Made by a program: the position numbers and the translations under genes. From the NCBI RefSeq assembly GCF_003334355.1, contig NZ_QOWP01000056.1: DNA of 10,236 nt; one strand, 5' to 3'. Below, in pieces: positions 4,132-10,236 of this stretch. Origin of the DNA: Escherichia coli. Its GTDB lineage: Bacteria > Pseudomonadota > Gammaproteobacteria > Enterobacterales > Enterobacteriaceae. Under the pieces are notes generated by a model, which ran no database searches, was not told where the DNA came from, and saw only the letters and a list, made by a program, of their open reading frames with translations. Each line of letters opens with the position of its first letter. Position 1 is the first letter of the stretch.

Positions 4132-4207
4132 GCCGATATAGCTCAGTTGGTAGAGCAGCGCATTCGTAATGCGAAGGTCGTAGGTTCGACTCCTATTATC
4201 GGCACCA
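4132..4207 (+). tRNA. thrW: tRNA-Thr (anticodon CGU)
   Basis: 76-nt sequence GCCGATATAGCTCAGTTGGTAGAGCAGCGCATTCGTAATGCGAAGGTCGTAGGTTCGACTCCTATTATCGGCACCA with encoded CCA; anticodon loop carries CGT; matches E. coli thrW. Confidence 0.96.
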
Positions 4208-4372: not shown

Positions 4373-5587
4373 GTGAAACTCAATGCCCGTCAAATAGACA
4401 CAGCCAAGCCAAAAGAGAAGGCTTACAAGCTGGCCGATGGTGGCGGTTTGTATCTCTTGGTAAAACCTAATGGAGGTAAATACTGGCGACTTAAATATCG
4501 TGTAGCTGGTAAAGAGAAGCTATTGGCACTAGGTGTGTATCCTGAGGTTACTCTAGCCGATGCTCGGGCAAAACGTGAAGATGCGAAAAGAGGTATCGCT
4601 GGTGGTATCGATCCGATGGAAGCGAAACGAGAGGAAAAGATTGCCCGGGAAACGCAGTTAAACAACACCTTCAAAGATATTGCCCTTGAGTGGCACAGCA
4701 GCAAATTAAAAAAATGGTCTGCTGGTTATGCTTCAGACATCCTCGAAGCCTTCAACAAAGATGTGTTCCCTTACATTGGCAAAAAACCAATCGCCGAAAT
4801 CAAACCACTTGAACTTCTGAATGTGCTGCGGCGCATTGAGGGGCGCGGTGCTACAGAAAAAGCCAAAAAAGTGAGGCAGCGGTGCGGGGAAGTTTTCCGC
4901 TATGCAATAGTCACTGGTCGCGCAGAGTATAACCCTGCACCAGACCTTACTAGCGCGATGCAAGGCCATGAATCTAATCATTACCCTTTCCTTACAGCCA
5001 AAGAATTACCTGATTTTTTCAAGGCATTGTCCAGTTACTCAGGAAGCGCATTGGTTGTTATGGCGGCTCGTCTACTGATTATCACAGGCTTGCGGACTGG
5101 CGAACTACGTGGCGCATTATGGGATGAAATTGATTTCAACAAGGCTCTCTGGGAGATACCCGCTTCACGTATGAAAATGCGGCGGCCTCATATTGTGCCA
5201 TTGTCTGAGCAGGCTCTTTCGCTTATTGGGAAGATTAGAGAAATAACAGGCAATTACCCTCTTATGTTTCCCGGGCGCAATGATCCAAGGAAAACAATGA
5301 GTGAGGCCAGCATAAACCAAGTGTTTAAGCGCATTGGCTACGCTGGACGTGTAACTGGTCATGGGTTCCGGCACACTATGAGTACGATTTTGCATGAGCA
5401 GGGCTATAACACCGCGTGGATAGAAACGCAGCTCGCTCACGTTGATAAGAACTCAATTCGTGGCACATACAACCATGCGCAATATCTGGATGGAAGGCGG
5501 GAGATGCTTCAATGGTATGCCGACTATATGGATTCTCTCGAGCATGGCGGAAATGTGGTGCATATGGTGTTTGAAAAACACGCATGA
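4373..5587 (+). CDS. Site-specific tyrosine recombinase, P4-type integrase family
   Basis: 404-aa ORF with GTG start, GGAGG 4359-4363. N-terminus KLNARQIDTAKPKEKAYKLADGGGLYLLVKPNGGKYWRLKYR is typical of the P4-family integrase N-terminal arm-binding domain; C-terminal GHGFRHT...RGTYNHAQY carries the H-x-x-R and catalytic Tyr motifs. Sits immediately 3' of a tRNA. Confidence 0.92.
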   Translation: MKLNARQIDTAKPKEKAYKLADGGGLYLLVKPNGGKYWRLKYRVAGKEKLLALGVYPEVTLADARAKREDAKRGIAGGIDPMEAKREEKIARETQLNNTFKDIALEWHSSKLKKWSAGYASDILEAFNKDVFPYIGKKPIAEIKPLELLNVLRRIEGRGATEKAKKVRQRCGEVFRYAIVTGRAEYNPAPDLTSAMQGHESNHYPFLTAKELPDFFKALSSYSGSALVVMAARLLIITGLRTGELRGALWDEIDFNKALWEIPASRMKMRRPHIVPLSEQALSLIGKIREITGNYPLMFPGRNDPRKTMSEASINQVFKRIGYAGRVTGHGFRHTMSTILHEQGYNTAWIETQLAHVDKNSIRGTYNHAQYLDGRREMLQWYADYMDSLEHGGNVVHMVFEKHA

Positions 5588-5840
5588 AACAACTGGACAA
5601 GTATACAGAGGTTTACTAAAGTATAGGGGAGTAGATTGATAAAAACTCACAGAGGATTACTATTTAACAGTTAGCCCTGGAGAAGGGCAATCGCTCTTTT
5701 AACAACGAAGATGGAATCTTCTACGCAGCTGAAAAGCTGGATGCTCTTTAACAGCCTTTGGTGCTTTCCTGATGCAGGAAAGAATAGGGATACATGCACC
5801 TTTACAATGCATGTAATGATTCATCCATGAGGCTGCGGAT

Positions 5841-5863
5841 CGCTGACAAAGCGCAATTGCTCT
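5841..5863 (+). repeat. 23-bp direct repeat copy 1 (CGCTGACAAAGCGCAATTGCTCT) with palindromic GCAATTGC core; candidate operator
   Basis: Identical to 5954-5976. Part of a 26-bp imperfect dyad TGACAAAGCGCAA|TTGCTCTTTAACA. The right arm GCTCTTTAACA recurs at 5743-5753 and, with one extra T, at 5692-5704. Confidence 0.8.
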
Positions 5864-5953
5864 TTAACATTGATGTGGGCGGGATGGTTCGTCCCGCAGT
5901 GACCGATAGATTTCTATCGGGAAACATACAATGATTCAAATATGAATCTACGG

Positions 5954-5976
5954 CGCTGACAAAGCGCAATTGCTCT
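5954..5976 (+). repeat. 23-bp direct repeat copy 2 (CGCTGACAAAGCGCAATTGCTCT)
   Basis: Perfect copy 113 bp downstream of copy 1. Similarity extends upstream imperfectly (ATGAGGCTGCGGAT vs ATGAATCTACGG). Confidence 0.8.
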
Positions 5977-6238
5977 CTTGCCTGCCCACCATGCCCTGAA
6001 AAAGGGCGTTCTTTAAAACTACTGGATGTCACGCCTAATAGCGTGATCCTGCCGAAATGCAGGGTAGCTCTACCCTTGTGGAGCAAACAAACCAAAACAA
6101 TCTGACTATCTTTTATAAAAGACCGCAATATGTTTTTCATATTGTGGTCTTTGGCGTATTCGACATTTGATGCAAATAAAACTCTCGCCATTCGTTGCAG
6201 GAGGGAGTTATTGCGTCATTAGTACAGGATATTAATAA

Positions 6239-6442
6239 ATGGCTAATTACAATTCATTAATTCGTCTCTCTGAAGTTCAAAGGCGAACTGGTTATAGCAA
6301 AGCATGGATTTATCGTCTTATTAGTCAGGGGAGGTTCCCTAAACAGGTAAAAATTGGAAGTCGGGCAATTGCTTTTGTTGAGTCTGAAATAGATGAATGG
6401 ATTGAGAAGTGTATATTAGAATCTAGAGACGAGGTGGCCTGA
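6239..6442 (+). CDS. alpA: AlpA-family phage regulatory protein (Xis/Vis-like winged-helix DNA-binding protein)
   Basis: 67-aa ORF MANYNSLIRLSEVQRRTGYSKAWIYRLISQGRFPKQVKIGSRAIAFVESEIDEWIEK...; helix-turn-helix segment and E-I-D-E-W motif characteristic of AlpA/Vis family; typical position downstream of a P4-type integrase. Confidence 0.85.
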   Translation: MANYNSLIRLSEVQRRTGYSKAWIYRLISQGRFPKQVKIGSRAIAFVESEIDEWIEKCILESRDEVA

Positions 6443-6873
6443 TGGAAAAGAAAAACCGCCCATTACAGGCGGCTAATTCAGATATTCGCGTATCTGATGT
6501 TACGCCCCTGACAAAATCCCTTCAAGCACCAAAGCGCACACCGAAAAAGCATCGTGCCAGAGTCTATATGCTGCGTACTGGTATAGAGGGATGGACAGAA
6601 AATGACATTCTTCGCTACTGCCGTCTGTCTTCTGGTCGTAACTATGCAACAGAGTTAGAACGCCAGCTTGGAATCACTCTGGAGCGTATCGACGAAAAGA
6701 ATCCTGATGGTATCGGAACACACCTTCGCTACCGTTTCTCCTGCCGTGGTGATGTTCTGAAAGTGATCACTCATGTTAACCATCTTGCGAGCATAAATGA
6801 TCACAACGGACTTTCTCAGCAGGAAATTGCCGACATTCTGAAACTCTACCCGGACGCGTTTAACGCCGCCTAA
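6442..6873 (+). CDS. Hypothetical protein (143 aa), basic N-terminal tail; function unknown
   Basis: ATG overlaps the alpA stop (TGATG); GAGGTGG SD at 6431-6437. No family recognised. Confidence 0.7.
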   Translation: MEKKNRPLQAANSDIRVSDVTPLTKSLQAPKRTPKKHRARVYMLRTGIEGWTENDILRYCRLSSGRNYATELERQLGITLERIDEKNPDGIGTHLRYRFSCRGDVLKVITHVNHLASINDHNGLSQQEIADILKLYPDAFNAA

Positions 6874-6885
6874 CGGAGACTGAAA

Positions 6886-7719
6886 ATGAACATCGAAAAA
6901 AGCAGATTAATTTCTGAGGCCGCCCCTCATCTGAACGCCTCTCTGGGCACAATTAACGGTAATGAATTTGCCGCAATTGTCCCGGTTATTCCTGGTCATA
7001 TCGGTGGGCGTGAAACCAATATTGTTAGCGCAAAAGCGTTACACAAAGCGTTGGGCGTGGGAAAAGACTTCTCTACATGGATCACTGATCGCATCTCTGA
7101 ATATGACTTCACCATTGGGCACGATTACTCAGTCCATAAAACAATTTCCCCAAATTTGGGGAAAAGCCCGAATGGCGCGGCTTACAGCAAGATTAAGCAG
7201 TCTGGCAGACCCGGCAAAGACTATCTGTTAAGTGTCGGAATGGCGAAAGAACTGGCAATGATCGAACGCAATGATCAGGGTCGCGCTATCCGCCGTTATT
7301 TCATCCAGTGCGAGGAAGAATTACAGCGTAGCGTGCCTGAAATCGCCGCCCGCTATCGTCGCCAGCTAAAAGCCCGTATCAGTGCCGCAAACAACTTTAA
7401 GCCAATGTGCGATGCGCTGAATATGGCCCGTGCCGAGATGGGTAAAACGACGCAGCAACACCACTACACAAACGAGAGCAATATGATTTCTCGTATCGTT
7501 CTTGGTGGGCTAACTGCTAAGCAGTGGGCGCGGATAAATGGCTATTCTGGCGAACCTCGCGACCATATGAACGCAGAACAGCTTGAGCACCTCTCATATC
7601 TCGAAAGCACCAATATCACGTTAATTGATATGGGCATGGAATATGAGCAGCGCAAAGGAGAACTCACCCGCCTGTCGCAACGCTGGCTCGCCAAGCGTCT
7701 GGAGGTGGTCAATGTCTAA
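6886..7719 (+). CDS. Phage antirepressor-like protein (AntA/KilAC-type N-terminal domain), 277 aa
   Basis: GGAGA SD 6875-6879. Motifs ...AKALHKALGVGKDFSTWITDRISEYDF... and ...DYLLSVGMAKELAMIERNDQGRAIRRYFIQCEE... resemble the AntA-type antirepressor N-terminal domain as I recall it. Confidence 0.8.
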   Translation: MNIEKSRLISEAAPHLNASLGTINGNEFAAIVPVIPGHIGGRETNIVSAKALHKALGVGKDFSTWITDRISEYDFTIGHDYSVHKTISPNLGKSPNGAAYSKIKQSGRPGKDYLLSVGMAKELAMIERNDQGRAIRRYFIQCEEELQRSVPEIAARYRRQLKARISAANNFKPMCDALNMARAEMGKTTQQHHYTNESNMISRIVLGGLTAKQWARINGYSGEPRDHMNAEQLEHLSYLESTNITLIDMGMEYEQRKGELTRLSQRWLAKRLEVVNV

Positions 7720-7894
7720 GCCAACAGGAACACCACAACCACAAAAACGCTACAAAGATGCCCACGGAGCACTCGTTACTGTCGAAAGCGTGTCTCACAA
7801 CCGAGTGACGTTTTATCGCGACGGGTATCAATCGCCATGCGTACAACCGCTGGCGCGTTTCATGAAGGAGTTCGCGGAGGTTAACAAATGCTAA
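7712..7894 (+). CDS. Small phage-type protein (60 aa); tentatively DUF4222-like
   Basis: ATG 7712 with GGAGGTGG 6 nt upstream, overlapping the upstream stop (ATGTCTAA). Translation [60 protein letters not shown]. The track ORF starts further upstream (7625) inside the preceding gene; the internal start is better supported. Confidence 0.65.
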   Translation: MSKPTGTPQPQKRYKDAHGALVTVESVSHNRVTFYRDGYQSPCVQPLARFMKEFAEVNKC

Positions 7895-8955
7895 CCGTCC
7901 AGAAGAAGACATTTTCACTGGCTGGTATGTCGCCAAAATCCAGCAATATGACGGCAAAGTCAGGCATTAATACAGCAGATACAAGCAAAGTTTATCATTT
8001 GCTGGTGGTCGGAACGGATGCCTTAACCATATCAGAAATCTCGGGCGATGATATTAGCATTGAGAAGGTCAGCGGCTGCGCCAGAAAATTTCTGGTCGTA
8101 GATGATGTCTTCCGCTCGTGTAGTGACTCCACAAAAACATTCGTCCACGCGCGTGACGTTAACGAAATGAGCGCGATGTACTGTGCATCTGGTGCTTCCA
8201 ATAGCGAGTTTTCGGAGTCCATAAAAAAGAGCTTGCCGTTATGCGGCAACACGGTTTATGGTTATAAGGCACCTCATAAAACGGGTGCCGGGATTGGCGT
8301 CCTGGTAAATCGAATGGCGACATATGACGCGCCGAGCGTCTTTTTTTATGTCGTAGGTCTGACTCACCCATTTTTTGGGCGTTGGTGTATAATCCAGCGC
8401 CTTTGTCAATCAATGGTGGCTCAGGCAGGGGCTTCTTCGGAAGCGCCGGTATCCATTCGAGCCGGTTACGCCAACCCTGTCTGGGCTACCACCAGCGAAA
8501 TTGGCGTTTCCGGTGGTAGCGTTACATGCTATCGAATGGAGGCTGCCACATGCTGGCTACTACCCCTACCCAAAAACCGCAATTTATCTGGATTATCGCC
8601 GCAGTTCGCCGCGATTGCCCGACAATTACCGCCAAAATTCATCATATTGCTGCCGAGTCTGAACGCGATGCTCGCCGTTCTCTGGTGCGCGATCACGTCT
8701 GCTTTTTTGCTGGTCGTATCCGCATGGAGGTGGCACATGATTAAAACCTACGATGTGCATATGGATCCCCTCGAACGCACAAGCCAGATCATCACACTGA
8801 CAGAAGTGATTAACGACATTCTGGTGAGCAACTCTCCCTCACGAGACGAAAGACTGAAGGCGTTACTCGCGATATTGGATCTCGCCGTTCGTGACGTTCA
8901 TTTCCTGCTGGAAGGTGGCGAAATGCCAGGAAAAACGGGGGCAACCAATGAATAA
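7888..8955 (+). CDS. Unresolved 355-codon open frame: real N-terminal gene start at 7888; frame stays open through the structured RNA region, the Icd-like gene (other frame) and the 8737 small gene
   Basis: ATG 7888 with GGAGG 7 nt upstream and ATGCTAA overlap with the upstream stop supports initiation. No stop in this frame until 8953-8955. Residues ~176-215 ([35 protein letters not shown]) resemble what databases label ash family protein, but this stretch coincides with strong RNA hairpins. The true C-terminus is unknown. Confidence 0.3.
8326..8347 (+). terminator. Intrinsic-terminator-like element inside the 7888 frame
   Basis: GACGC (8326-8330) / GCGTC (8336-8340) 5-bp GC-rich stem, 5-nt loop, followed by seven T (8341-8347). 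A second T6 run is at 8371-8376. Confidence 0.35.
8388..8393 (+). promoter_or_regulatory. Consensus -10 hexamer TATAAT, TG immediately upstream; possible promoter for the structured RNA/icd leader
   Basis: GTGTATAAT at 8385-8393. No convincing -35 at 17 bp spacing, so weak. Confidence 0.25.
8428..8520 (+). ncRNA. Candidate c4/CI-type antisense regulatory RNA (three consecutive hairpins)
   Basis: HP1 8431-8444: GCTTC/GAAGC stem with TTCG tetraloop. HP2 8445-8466: 6-bp stem (2 wobble) with a 10-nt loop carrying TCCATTCGA (8452-8460). HP3 8485-8520: 9-bp stem CTACCACC.../...GGTGGTAG plus 6-bp inner stem, TTGG loop. The HP2 loop is exactly complementary to TCGAATGGA (8532-8540), which overlaps the GGAGG SD of the Icd-like gene, and 8/9 complementary to 8310-8317. 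Confidence 0.4.
8550..8744 (+). CDS. Host cell division inhibitor Icd-like protein (64 aa)
   Basis: ATG 8550 with GGAGG 8538-8542. Translation [64 protein letters not shown]; the F-x-W-x-x-x-A-V-R-R ... E-x-x-A-R-R ... F-A-x-R pattern matches my recollection of Icd-like proteins of P1/P4-type elements. The track start at 8526 lacks an SD. Confidence 0.6.
   Translation: MLATTPTQKPQFIWIIAAVRRDCPTITAKIHHIAAESERDARRSLVRDHVCFFAGRIRMEVAHD
8737..8955 (+). CDS. Small acidic hypothetical protein (72 aa), independently initiated
   Basis: ATG 8737 with GGAGGTGG at 8727-8734; overlaps the icd-like stop as ATGATTAA. Translation [72 protein letters not shown]. Same frame as the 7888 ORF. Confidence 0.55.
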   Translation: MIKTYDVHMDPLERTSQIITLTEVINDILVSNSPSRDERLKALLAILDLAVRDVHFLLEGGEMPGKTGATNE

Positions 8956-9142
8956 CTCAATTAATACCCCTCGCCTTACGTCCGCACTTCAATTAATCGA
9001 GCAAGCAGCGGCTGTCCTGGTTGCTGTCAGTCTTTCGGCTGAAGAAATGGACGCTGCTGATGTCGTGGATGCGATTAAAGCGTGCTCATCTTTGGTTAAC
9101 GATGCCCGTGCCGAGCTGGTAATTCTTGGGGGTGAAAAATGA
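8948..9142 (+). CDS. Small acidic hypothetical protein (64 aa)
   Basis: ATG 8948 overlapping the upstream stop (ATGAATAA); [64 protein letters not shown]. The track start at 8891 lies inside the upstream gene. Confidence 0.6.
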   Translation: MNNSINTPRLTSALQLIEQAAAVLVAVSLSAEEMDAADVVDAIKACSSLVNDARAELVILGGEK

Positions 9143-9402
9143 ATATCAACTTAATTTATCGTCATCCGTGTGAGCTGGAAATTGAATCATTGCTGGGGCG
9201 TGAAGAGCCATATCCAGACACATTCACTCCCGCAGATTGCGCGACTGAACGGCTTACCAGAGCGCGCACAGGTCTGGTTCATGTGATGAATGAGATTGTT
9301 CCCTCGGTGGGAGGGGAACAGGCGACAGTAATCAATAGCTGGCTACAAAAAGTTACCTCCCTGATAGATATCGGTTTAATCGATGTGGAGAGTGCGAAAT
9401 GA
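9139..9402 (+). CDS. Small acidic hypothetical protein (87 aa)
   Basis: ATGA overlap with upstream stop; GGGGGTG upstream; MNINLIYRHPCELEIESLLGREEPYPDTF... Confidence 0.65.
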   Translation: MNINLIYRHPCELEIESLLGREEPYPDTFTPADCATERLTRARTGLVHVMNEIVPSVGGEQATVINSWLQKVTSLIDIGLIDVESAK

Positions 9403-9620
9403 CCAACATCCAGCTCATTGAAGCGCAATGTCGCATCGAACAGGTTCAGACTGTTTTAGGGTTCTGGCTTGAAGGGGCCAGCCCCAGCAACAGAGACAAG
9501 TTAATGATTGGCGCGGTTATGTCACTGCTCAATGGCGTACCAGAAGCTATTCAGGAAGCGGACGAATTGTTGGGCAAATATGAGTTACAGAATCATTCAG
9601 GCGAGGCGAAACATGAATAA
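9399..9620 (+). CDS. Small acidic hypothetical protein (73 aa)
   Basis: ATGA overlap with upstream stop; GGAG at 9387-9390; MTNIQLIEAQCRIEQVQTVLGFWLEGASPSNRDKLMIGAVMSLLNGVPEAIQEADELLGKYELQNHSGEAKHE. Confidence 0.6.
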   Translation: MTNIQLIEAQCRIEQVQTVLGFWLEGASPSNRDKLMIGAVMSLLNGVPEAIQEADELLGKYELQNHSGEAKHE

Positions 9621-10161
9621 TTTCTTAACCTTCCATGCAGAAGCAACGCCTGACGGCGTAAACATCATGCACCGCAGCAACGATGGCATGACAGAACGCG
9701 TTGAGACCGTCTCATATATTGATGCCGTAAATCGTCTGGATGCCGGGGATTATGACGATAAACCAGATGAAGGCATGTTTATACATCTCGCTATTGCCAG
9801 TGGCGGCAACCAGGGATATTTCGATTACACATCACAGCATCACGTGATTATGTGGCGCTGGCTGATAGCAACAGCATTCATCAATGAAATGAGAAAGGAA
9901 AACGGCACCGTCAGCATTATTGATGACAGTGGCAATCATTCCGTGGTTTCTGTTTATTCCAATGGCATCGTCGCCATGCCGCTGTATCCAGTAGCAGAGC
10001 GCCTCGCTATGGCAAACAACATTGAGGGCGCAATGATCGAGAAATATGGTGTTGATGTCGGAACAAAGAATGCCATCATTTTTTACAGCAACATGTTCGA
10101 TGTCGAACAGGGAACACTCACTTCGTTTGGGCGAGAAGTGCTTGCCGATCTTCACAACTGA
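9613..10161 (+). CDS. Hypothetical protein (182 aa); stop codon supplied by the first 3 nt of the downstream IS, so possibly C-terminally truncated
   Basis: ATG 9613 overlapping upstream stop (ATGAATAA), GAGG at 9603-9606; MNNFLTFHAEATPDGVNIMHRSNDGMTERVETVSYIDAVNRLDAGDYDDKPDEGMF.... The track start at 9508 is inside the upstream gene. TGA 10159-10161 coincides with the IS terminal TGAACCGCC. Confidence 0.7.
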   Translation: MNNFLTFHAEATPDGVNIMHRSNDGMTERVETVSYIDAVNRLDAGDYDDKPDEGMFIHLAIASGGNQGYFDYTSQHHVIMWRWLIATAFINEMRKENGTVSIIDDSGNHSVVSVYSNGIVAMPLYPVAERLAMANNIEGAMIEKYGVDVGTKNAIIFYSNMFDVEQGTLTSFGREVLADLHN

Positions 10162-10236
10162 ACCGCCCCGGAAATCCTGGAGACTAAACTCCCTGAGAAA
10201 GAGGTAAACAGGATGACTAAAAATACTCGTTTTTCC
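10159..10236 (+). mobile_element. IS3-family insertion sequence (IS629/IS1203-like), left end; continues beyond window
   Basis: TGAACCGCCCCGGAAATCCTGGAGACTAAACTCCCTGAGAAAGAGGTAAACAGG then ATG...MTKNTRFS matches my recollection of the IS629-type left inverted repeat and OrfA N-terminus. From memory, not verified. Confidence 0.65.
10213..10236 (+). CDS. IS3-family transposase OrfA, N-terminal 8 codons (3'-partial at window edge)
   Basis: ATG 10213 preceded by GAGG; MTKNTRFS...; only 24 nt available. Confidence 0.5.

Follow-up and report, generated by a model that had tools for sequence, protein, structure and literature searches.

In the immI operon (c4-icd-ant) of P1 and P7, C4 RNA is processed from the operon leader, and its loops pair with boxes a1 and b1 upstream and with boxes a2 and b2 at the icd ribosome-binding site (RBS). 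The gene that follows icd starts in an overlap with the icd stop codon, and ant is translationally dependent on icd. The left operon of satellite P4 (eta/kil, seqA, CI RNA, epsilon, orf151, alpha) runs from an alpA/vis-type gene through a long ORF with a promoter and two RNAs to an Icd/Kil-like gene, small genes and a primase. Overlaps of 8 nt join eta/kil to epsilon (GTGCGTAA) and epsilon to orf151 (ATGTTTGA). P4 eta is translated and coupled and prevents termination, according to the anti-termination model summarised in PMC10111431. In Salmonella Gifsy-1, isrK RNA and its terminator are followed by a short ORF, orf45, whose stop overlaps the anrP start (AUGA), and coupling at this junction was shown by mutagenesis (PMC4825925). 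More generally, overlaps are found in approximately 15% of co-directional gene pairs in most groups of prokaryotes, and of 14 overlapping pairs put to the test, 13 showed strict coupling (PMC6728339).

A probable early operon of a P4-like satellite prophage

The DNA analysed here (the window) is a 10,236-nt stretch of Escherichia coli contig NZ_QOWP01000056.1. Its region 6239-10161 is very probably the early ("left") operon of a P4-like satellite prophage at tRNA-Thr, in which short genes are chained by overlaps of 1-8 nt with the Shine-Dalgarno (SD) sequence in the upstream gene, the overlapping ATGs being true starts; from the analogy with P4 we infer reinitiation, Rho-dependent polarity and promoter activity. 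The features are:

4132-4207 (+), tRNA-Thr (CGT), the island integration site (ARAGORN, Rfam)
4373-5587 (+), tyrosine integrase (ORF list; PGAP 'tyrosine-type recombinase/integrase' or 'integrase arm-type DNA-binding domain-containing protein')
6239-6442 (+), alpA/excisionase-like HTH gene, the operon's first; one base is common to its TGA and the next ATG
6442-6873 (+), gene for a 143-aa hypothetical protein, the anchor for finding relatives
6886-7719 (+), AntA/AntB-type antirepressor-like gene (ant), with an independent start and its own SD after a 12-nt spacer
7712-7894 (+), DUF4222 gene, 60 aa (overlap with the ant stop, SD, homologues)
7888-8955 (+), eta-like ORF355, 355 aa, annotated 'Ash family'; overlaps the DUF4222 stop
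8233-8262 (+), promoter-like element TTGCCG-N18-TATGGT, conserved, ending 6 nt 5' of isrK
8269-8346 (+), isrK / P4 seqA-like RNA (Rfam RF01394, 67.1 bits; terminator scan)
8409-8496 (+), C4 / P4 CI-type antisense immunity RNA, loop at 8452-8459 (Rfam RF01695, 79.5 bits)
8532-8540 (+), target box TCGAATGGA, the complement of the C4 hairpin loop; it shares bases with the icd SD (GGAGG, 8538-8542)
8550-8744 (+), icd / P4 kil-like gene, 64 aa (NCBIfam NF033153, E = 3.7e-20)
8737-8955 (+), 72-aa gene, nested in frame at the end of ORF355; overlaps the icd stop
8948-9142 (+), 64-aa gene, starting at ATGAATAA in an 8-nt overlap with the stop of the 72-aa gene
9139-9402 (+), 87-aa gene, ATGA overlap
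9399-9620 (+), 73-aa gene, ATGA overlap
9613-10161 (+), 9613 gene, starting at ATGAATAA; 200 aa in intact relatives, here 182 codons and then an IS3-family element

A tyrosine integrase, tRNA-Thr and alpA are present in the window, the gene order is common to this locus and P4, and P4 gives the same pair of Rfam matches (RF01695, RF01394). Unlike P4, the window carries the 143-aa gene, ant and the DUF4222 gene between alpA and the long ORF, and its small downstream genes are not homologous to P4 epsilon or orf151. Whereas P4 kil is the in-frame end of eta, the eta-like frame of the window lies in +1 to icd, overprints it and ends with the extra 72-aa gene. The operon, which from alpA, the 143-aa gene, ant, DUF4222, icd and the small genes originally continued to a primase, is interrupted at 10159 by the IS3-family element, whose end supplies the TGA of the 9613 gene after codon 182. 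Because of this element, the P4 alpha-type primase is absent from the window, while the intact relative L001 has it as a TOPRIM/DUF927 protein; since the operon is cut, this copy may be decaying. Any helper-exploitation genes (sid, delta, psu) would be expected past the IS element and hence outside the window; E. coli strain A29 (NZ_CP028746) has the island in intact form. No NCBIfam family was found for the 143-, 72-, 64-, 87- and 73-aa proteins; in PHROGs, the 60- and 73-aa proteins matched only families of unknown function.

The Rfam C4 and c4-a1b1 models match the window's family of loci, a likeness to P1/P7 immI. However, the antirepressor-like gene stands upstream of C4 here and downstream of icd in P1/P7, and the element here is a satellite island whereas P1 is a plasmid prophage. 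Membership in P1 immI was rejected on gene order, with the ant-like gene (6886-7719) 5' of C4 and icd apparently coupled to an unrelated 72-aa gene. The Gifsy-1 locus has other downstream genes than the window, and IsrK acts there as an activator in trans. Generic overlapping pairs likewise use ATGA or TGATG with the SD in the upstream gene (PMC6728339); in the window, eight of the ten chain junctions overlap, 8 nt being the commonest length (4/8).

Overlapping stop and start codons

A first-pass annotation had listed eight overlap strings, all of which were recovered at their coordinates in a string check against the window. At each, the stop of an intact upstream ORF is joined to the ATG of an intact downstream ORF, as follows:

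6440-6444 (+), TGATG, 1-nt overlap, alpA to 143-aa gene
7712-7719 (+), ATGTCTAA, 8-nt overlap, ant to DUF4222 gene
7888-7894 (+), ATGCTAA, 7-nt overlap, DUF4222 gene to ORF355
8737-8744 (+), ATGATTAA, 8-nt overlap, icd to 72-aa gene
8948-8955 (+), ATGAATAA, 8-nt overlap, 72-aa to 64-aa gene
9139-9142 (+), ATGA, 4-nt overlap, 64-aa to 87-aa gene
9399-9402 (+), ATGA, 4-nt overlap, 87-aa to 73-aa gene
9613-9620 (+), ATGAATAA, 8-nt overlap, 73-aa to 9613 gene

Overlap does recur, but the uniform motif under which it had been described is loose, because 7888-7894 is a 7-nt ATGNTAA and 6440-6444 overlaps by 1 nt. Nor does overlap extend along the whole operon, as had been stated: the step from the 143-aa gene to ant (the 12-nt spacer) and the entry into icd lack it. 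Among ORFs of at least 55 codons in region 6200-10161, eight overlapping pairs were observed, against a mean of 0.20 and a maximum of 2 in 1000 dinucleotide-preserving shuffles. The bare motifs were not enriched over these shuffles (ATGA, 33 vs 25; T(AA/AG/GA)TG, 13 vs 14), so the signal is the position of the motif at gene ends rather than the motif per se.

All eight overlapped starts have an SD inside the upstream gene, with anti-SD pairing energies from -6.8 to -10.6 kcal/mol (6442, -7.4; 7712, -10.6; 7888, -10.2; 8737, -10.6; 8948, -8.6; 9139, -9.7; 9399, -6.8; 9613, -7.3); the mean for all plus-strand ATGs is -2.4 kcal/mol, and 12% of these lie at -6 kcal/mol or lower. The GGAGG-type SD that had been ascribed to most junctions is a literal GGAGG only at 7712, 7888 and 8737, and the remaining five have GAGGTGG, GGGGG, GGAGAG or GAGG. 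Opening the RBS was calculated to cost 3.4-3.6 kcal/mol at the two independent starts, alpA and ant (ant, 3.4), and 5.2-11.8 kcal/mol at seven of the eight overlapped starts with which these two were compared, the exception, 9613, resembling the independent ones.

The overlaps were compared in 27 related loci from about 20 genera of Enterobacterales and are present at the same junctions. Overlap is kept in 13/13 loci for the 87-aa gene (ATGA or GTGA), 16/16 for the 73-aa gene (ATGA) and 21/21 for the 9613 gene, and alpA meets the 143-aa gene at TAATG or TGATG in 24 of 27. In at least 15 loci the ORF355-type frame begins in an overlap with the preceding stop codon, and homologues of the 72-aa gene in L015 and L019 likewise start at ATGCTTAA. 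The overlaps persist while the junction sequence varies, among ATGTCTAA, ATGCGTAA and ATGACTAA in one case and between ATGAATAA and ATGA in another. Tight translational coupling along the chain, as first proposed, appears sound and well founded on sequence and on the analogous systems.

Short forms versus upstream-extended ORFs

In-frame stops in relatives, SD energies and PGAP calls all favour the internal starts, which the first-pass annotation had preferred to the longer ORFs of its ORF track; it had named translation of the forms starting at 7625, 8891 and 9508 as what would overturn this choice, and the comparative data speak against these forms. In four loci (L006, L007, L010 and L015), an in-frame stop 6-48 nt 5' of the ATG of the DUF4222 gene leaves the overlapping ATG as the sole in-frame start, and the extension from 7625 is not conserved. 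For the 64-aa gene, an in-frame stop 15 nt 5' of the ATG in L005 leaves only the overlapping ATG. Homology of the 9613 gene in 15 more distant loci begins at an ATGA-overlapping ATG, the sole in-frame start in 14 of them, with in-frame stops within a few dozen nucleotides of this ATG in nearly all. Because the overlapping ATG is so often the sole in-frame start across these genera, the longer ORFs are not conserved. Substitutions between E. coli variants were too sparse for codon-position counts to bear directly on the short extensions, which were therefore settled by the in-frame stops of distant relatives.

At the alternative starts 7625, 7643, 8891, 8915, 9508, 9532 and 9580, the anti-SD energies range from +0.2 to -3.4 kcal/mol. 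The NCBI annotation pipeline (PGAP) already calls the short forms, whose exact proteins occur on at least 1000 contigs each, while none of the long forms is present among the 15 billion proteins of the collection searched. The stop-start overlaps are genuine, they are conserved, and the gene starts that they indicate are the correct ones.

The C4 immunity region and icd

At the 8737 junction, icd is the upstream gene, and its start is most likely 8550 (SD, -9.3 kcal/mol) rather than the track start, 8526 (-6.4 kcal/mol); its product is 43% identical to P4 Kil. The isrK-like RNA has an intrinsic terminator, a stem at 8326-8340 followed by a T-run, and holds upstream target boxes for C4. The C4 loop matches the box at the icd RBS over 8-10 nt in 18/18 cognate pairs (9 nt in the window, overlapping the icd SD), compared with an average of 4.9 nt in non-cognate pairs, and the covariation of the two extends over at least 11 specificities. 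Full-length C4-target duplex energies were uninformative (targets, -55; background minimum, -63 kcal/mol), and targeting was judged instead by exact loop/target-box complementarity. A single-sequence nhmmer search with the C4 RNA of the window failed to detect C4 in the closest E. coli variants, owing to their different immunity type; it was recovered there with Rfam covariance models.

Judged by sequence, the candidate promoter at 8233-8262 is the counterpart of the constitutive promoter inside P4 eta, and its sequence is conserved in P4 itself and in the majority of 16 further loci examined. A generic sigma-70 scan did not report this element, which has 8 of 12 consensus positions and falls below the tool's threshold. 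It emerged only by comparing loci.

By analogy with P4, transcription from this promoter would yield the isrK/seqA-like leader and the C4/CI antisense RNA, and C4 would pair with the box on the icd SD, blocking a single RBS. This block would silence icd and then, through the coupled chain and transcriptional polarity, everything downstream. In the chain itself, where the SD lies inside the upstream gene, a ribosome ending one gene could restart on the next, by termination-reinitiation or by unfolding of the downstream RBS. Transcripts from the upstream promoter would be translated unbroken through ORF355, coupled to the DUF4222 gene by ATGCTAA, and such translation would let them read through.

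The long frame across the RNA genes

ORF355 spans the internal promoter, isrK, C4, all of icd (in the +1 frame) and the 72-aa gene, a span that the first-pass annotation had missed, and the 8737 start is nested within it as in P4 eta and kil. Both isrK and C4 are enclosed by a long ORF in the window, as they are in P4 and at least 16 further loci. Across the RNA region this frame is free of stops in 17/17 loci, while the other two frames have 69 and 52, and a long frame is open over C4 in 25/25 loci. Furthermore, an alignment of ORF355 with P4 eta covers residues 116-220 and keeps the register (E = 9e-19). The RNA part shows no codon-position bias (33/31/29 differences) and has 45 nonsynonymous versus 7 synonymous codon changes. 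Given this lack of bias, the peptide encoded by the RNA part is probably unconstrained, and only the openness of the frame argues for its translation.

In 16 of 25 loci, P4 included, the long ORF ends in frame with kil/icd. The ORF355 of the window is not of this form, as it lies in +1 to icd and terminates with the 72-aa gene. An eta-like frame that bypasses icd in +1 and merges with the next gene may be a minor, perhaps undescribed variant. We tentatively suggest, as a possibility somewhat short of even, that in the window lineage and in Pluralibacter L015, Buttiauxella L019 and Escherichia sp. L023 a one-base shift before icd has made the ORF a sequence-indifferent ribosome bridge over the promoter, two RNA genes and a protein gene, fully overprinting icd and open only to keep upstream-promoter transcripts covered by ribosomes.

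Alternative explanations

It seems quite unlikely that genome compaction in a small mobile element produced the overlaps as a neutral side effect, with independent initiation at strong SDs and little influence of upstream translation. A good SD at every overlapped start would permit such initiation, overlap is common by itself at about 15% of co-directional pairs in most prokaryote groups (PMC6728339), and the 9613 RBS is as accessible as independent ones; yet the same junctions overlap across genera though their sequence and even overlap length change, seven of eight overlapped RBSs are less accessible than the two independent ones, and tested overlapping pairs, including the isrK-linked orf45-anrP, are coupled. 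Far less probable still is translation of the extended ORFs (7625, 8891, 9508), in which the overlapping ATGs would be internal methionines. This longer-ORF reading was rejected: the frames are open 5' of the ATG in the window and its near-identical E. coli relatives, but other relatives have in-frame stops inside the putative extensions, the extended ORFs start with TTG or GTG nearly without SD pairing (+0.2 to -3.1 kcal/mol), and their long proteins are absent from the collection in which the short ones abound.

A further alternative concerns the 7888 ORF, which might be untranslated, its designation as an "Ash family protein" being an artefact of translating conserved RNA genes, so that ATGCTAA would be no real gene start. 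The Pfam Phage_ASH match extends over residues 124-232 (window 8257-8583), in essence the promoter, isrK, C4, the spacer and the first icd codons, and this part evolves without codon-position bias. PGAP labels the ORF a pseudogene in L002, and its N-terminal part is a mosaic, similar to 'injection protein' and 'DNA-packaging protein' genes. An artefact is nonetheless unlikely, as the frame is stop-free in 17/17 loci of many immunity types, against 52-69 stops in the other frames, and open over C4 in 25/25 loci; in at least 15 loci its start codon lies in an overlap with the upstream stop, here behind GGAGG (-10.2 kcal/mol); and for P4 eta both translation and the prevention of termination have been reported (PMC10111431).

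Implications

The overlaps are ordinary for the early operon of a P4-like satellite, and they are already known and annotated. For annotation, the short gene models that begin at the overlaps are correct and the mechanically derived longest ORFs are not, as public annotation already has it. The window belongs to the well-studied P4/P1 type of RNA-based immunity, in which a coupled chain lets one antisense RNA at one RBS control the whole operon. The frame-shifted eta variant over icd is the only part that possibly adds something new: if this variant is translated, it would provide a clear example from nature of an ORF kept for ribosome traffic and not for its protein product.

Gene Order and Stop-Start Overlaps

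In the window, phoE, proB, proA, tRNA-Thr and a tyrosine integrase gene (int) are followed by a plus-strand operon, which is present in about 475 complete E. coli genomes.

Operon genes (plus strand, by start; overlap with the upstream stop) and RNA genes
alpA
6442, 143-aa gene; 1 nt (TGATG, 6440-6444)
AntA/AntB-type gene (ant)
7712, DUF4222 gene; 8 nt
7888-8955, 355-aa "Ash family" ORF (the long ORF); 7 nt
8269-8346, isrK RNA (Rfam), inside the long ORF
8409-8496, C4 antisense RNA (Rfam), inside the long ORF
8550-8744, Icd-like gene (icd)
8737, 72-aa gene, first of four small genes; 8 nt
8948, 64-aa gene; 8 nt
9139, 87-aa gene; 4 nt
9399, 73-aa gene; 4 nt
9613, 200-aa gene; 8 nt

An IS3-family element at 10159 interrupts the 200-aa gene after codon 182, and the end of this IS1203/IS629-like element (TGAACCGCCCCGG, 10159-10236) provides the TGA stop of the truncated gene. 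In intact relatives the operon continues into a P4-type primase, which is missing from the window. The int-alpA RNA (Rfam RF02996), found between int and alpA in related loci L002, L006, L007 and 14 others, was not detected in the window; there, the interval is taken up by a 129-aa ORF on the minus strand (5802-6191).

The eight stop-start overlaps reported in the first-pass annotation were all confirmed: at each junction, the stop codon of one intact ORF overlaps the ATG that opens another. Among ORFs of 55 codons or more, eight overlapping pairs were counted in 6200-10161, versus a mean of 0.20 and a maximum of 2 in 1000 dinucleotide-preserving shuffles. The bare overlap motifs showed no enrichment on their own in the shuffle comparison; their non-random aspect is placement at gene ends. 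Anti-Shine-Dalgarno (anti-SD) pairing at the eight overlapped starts ranges from -6.8 to -10.6 kcal/mol, compared with a mean of -2.4 for all plus-strand ATGs. The GGAGG-type SD described for most junctions is literally GGAGG at three of the eight, with G-rich variants at the others.

Choice of Start Codons

The overlapping ATGs had been preferred to longer, upstream-extended ORFs (starts at 7625, 8891 and 9508), and this choice was upheld by several lines of evidence. PGAP annotates exactly these starts in a 100% identical E. coli chromosome, and does likewise in variants of 93-94% identity. Using the 143-aa protein as anchor, 21 loci were collected from other Enterobacterales, supplemented by variants from E. 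coli and by two E. coli islands that are more distant, and for each homologue the in-frame starts were tabulated from the preceding in-frame stop to the beginning of homology.

Overlapping starts in homologues
143-aa gene (6442): 1-nt overlap with alpA in 24/27 loci
DUF4222 gene (7712): overlapping ATG the sole available start in L006, L007, L010 and L015
64-aa gene (8948): close relatives only; in-frame stop 15 nt upstream in L005
87-aa gene (9139): overlapping start in 13/13 homologues
73-aa gene (9399): overlapping start in 16/16 homologues
9613 gene: ATGA-overlapping ATG at the homology start in 15 distant loci, the only in-frame start in 14 of them

For the possible starts of the extensions, anti-SD energies are only +0.2 to -3.4 kcal/mol. 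In protein records the exact short proteins each occur in at least 1000 contigs, and the long forms do not appear. On these grounds, together with the homologue starts, the longer ORFs were rejected as the translated forms. For icd, the mechanical ORF begins at 8526, while the homologous, SD-backed start is 8550; 64-aa and 72-aa forms of its product are both present in public databases.

The Long ORF and Its RNA Genes

The ORF opened at 7888 has no stop until 8955, and its final portion, in the same frame, is the 8737 gene. Its start overlaps the preceding gene's stop in at least 15 loci. Through the RNA region its frame contains no stops in 17/17 loci, compared with 69 and 52 in the other two frames, and over C4 it is open in 25/25 loci. 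The match to Pfam Phage_ASH (PF10554, 'Ash protein family') covers residues 124-232 (8257-8583), a span made up essentially of the internal promoter, isrK, C4, the spacer before icd and the first icd codons. Between immunity types, differences in this stretch up to icd fall on the three codon positions without bias (33/31/29), with 45 nonsynonymous versus 7 synonymous codon changes, a pattern that gives no sign of constraint on the peptide. PF10554 is in effect a translation of RNA genes.

A promoter-like element, TTGCCG-N18-TATGGT (8233-8262, plus strand), stops 6 nt short of the isrK 5' end and is conserved, as TATGGT or TATAGT, in P4 and most of 16 other loci inspected; it fell below the threshold of a generic promoter scan. 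A minus-strand terminator-like hairpin with a T-run (8223-8249) overlaps its -35 region, with no minus-strand gene evident at this site. In the N-terminal region of the long ORF, 8036-8142 is ~90% identical to segments of 'DNA-packaging protein' genes of other E. coli, and the protein cluster of the long ORF includes 'injection protein, partial' entries, which points to a possible mosaic origin of the N-terminal third.

The C4 hairpin loop CCAUUCGA (8452-8459) is complementary to a TCGAATGG(A) box at 8532-8540, located 19-21 nt before the icd ATG and overlapping the icd SD, and also to a site inside isrK (8312-8319). Both target regions also contain TTGGCGT, matched by another segment of the loop, ACGCCAA (8466-8472). 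The pair of boxes in isrK was identified by direct reading of the sequence; the Rfam c4-a1b1 family matches the position of the isrK boxes in L006 and L007. Loop and icd box covary across at least 11 specificities, with cognate matches of 8-10 nt in 18/18 loci versus a non-cognate mean of 4.9 nt. In the E. coli variants L002-L005 and L008, islands otherwise 97-100% identical to the window, the C4 and target-box sequences differ, with ~32% divergence over 290 nt of 8257-8549. The immunity cassette appears to have been swapped as a module.

In 16/25 loci, including P4, the long ORF and icd share a reading frame. The length of the C4-icd spacer is 2 mod 3 rather than 0 in the window's lineage, L015, L019 and L023, and in these the long ORF crosses all of icd stop-free in the +1 frame into the next gene, so that the window's icd is wholly embedded in it. 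Among the in-frame loci, the +1 frame has at least one stop in 15/16. Synonymous resampling of each Icd protein gave chances of an open +1 frame of 0.31, 0.35, 0.075 and 0.043 in the four lineages, a suggestive result, but these lineages may not be independent of one another.

Relation to P4 and Proposed Translational Control

Phage P4 has the same two Rfam matches in the same order inside its long ORF, eta, which ends with Kil, a protein 43% identical to the window's Icd-like protein; the 8737 gene at the end of the long ORF resembles kil within eta. Overlaps of 8 nt in the same style occur in P4 at eta/kil to epsilon and epsilon to orf151. These shared features identify the region as the early, or "left", operon of a P4-like satellite. 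In the P4 model as summarised in PMC10111431, a constitutive internal promoter, seqA and CI all lie within eta, the truncated form of Eta is Kil, and eta translation prevents termination; the maintained open frame and overlapped start of the long ORF match this model.

Tight translational coupling, as proposed from the overlaps, is supported. Ribosomes would reinitiate at the overlaps, continuous translation would protect upstream-promoter transcripts from Rho, and C4 binding would lead to polarity downstream, with one blocked ribosome-binding site heading a coupled chain, as in P4. The same logic operates in P1 immI. The ribosome-binding sites of the independently started alpA and ant are accessible (3.4-3.6 kcal/mol to open), whereas at seven of the eight overlapped starts opening costs 5.2-11.8 kcal/mol, a contrast that weakly favors this mechanism. 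Mutagenesis demonstrated coupling at an AUGA junction in the related isrK locus of Salmonella (PMC4825925), and in a general survey ~15% of co-directional pairs overlap and 13/14 tested overlapping pairs were strictly coupled (PMC6728339).

The overlaps are ordinary for phage-derived operons and already in public annotation, and P4 has the known architecture; the one element that may be undescribed is the frame-shifted eta variant.
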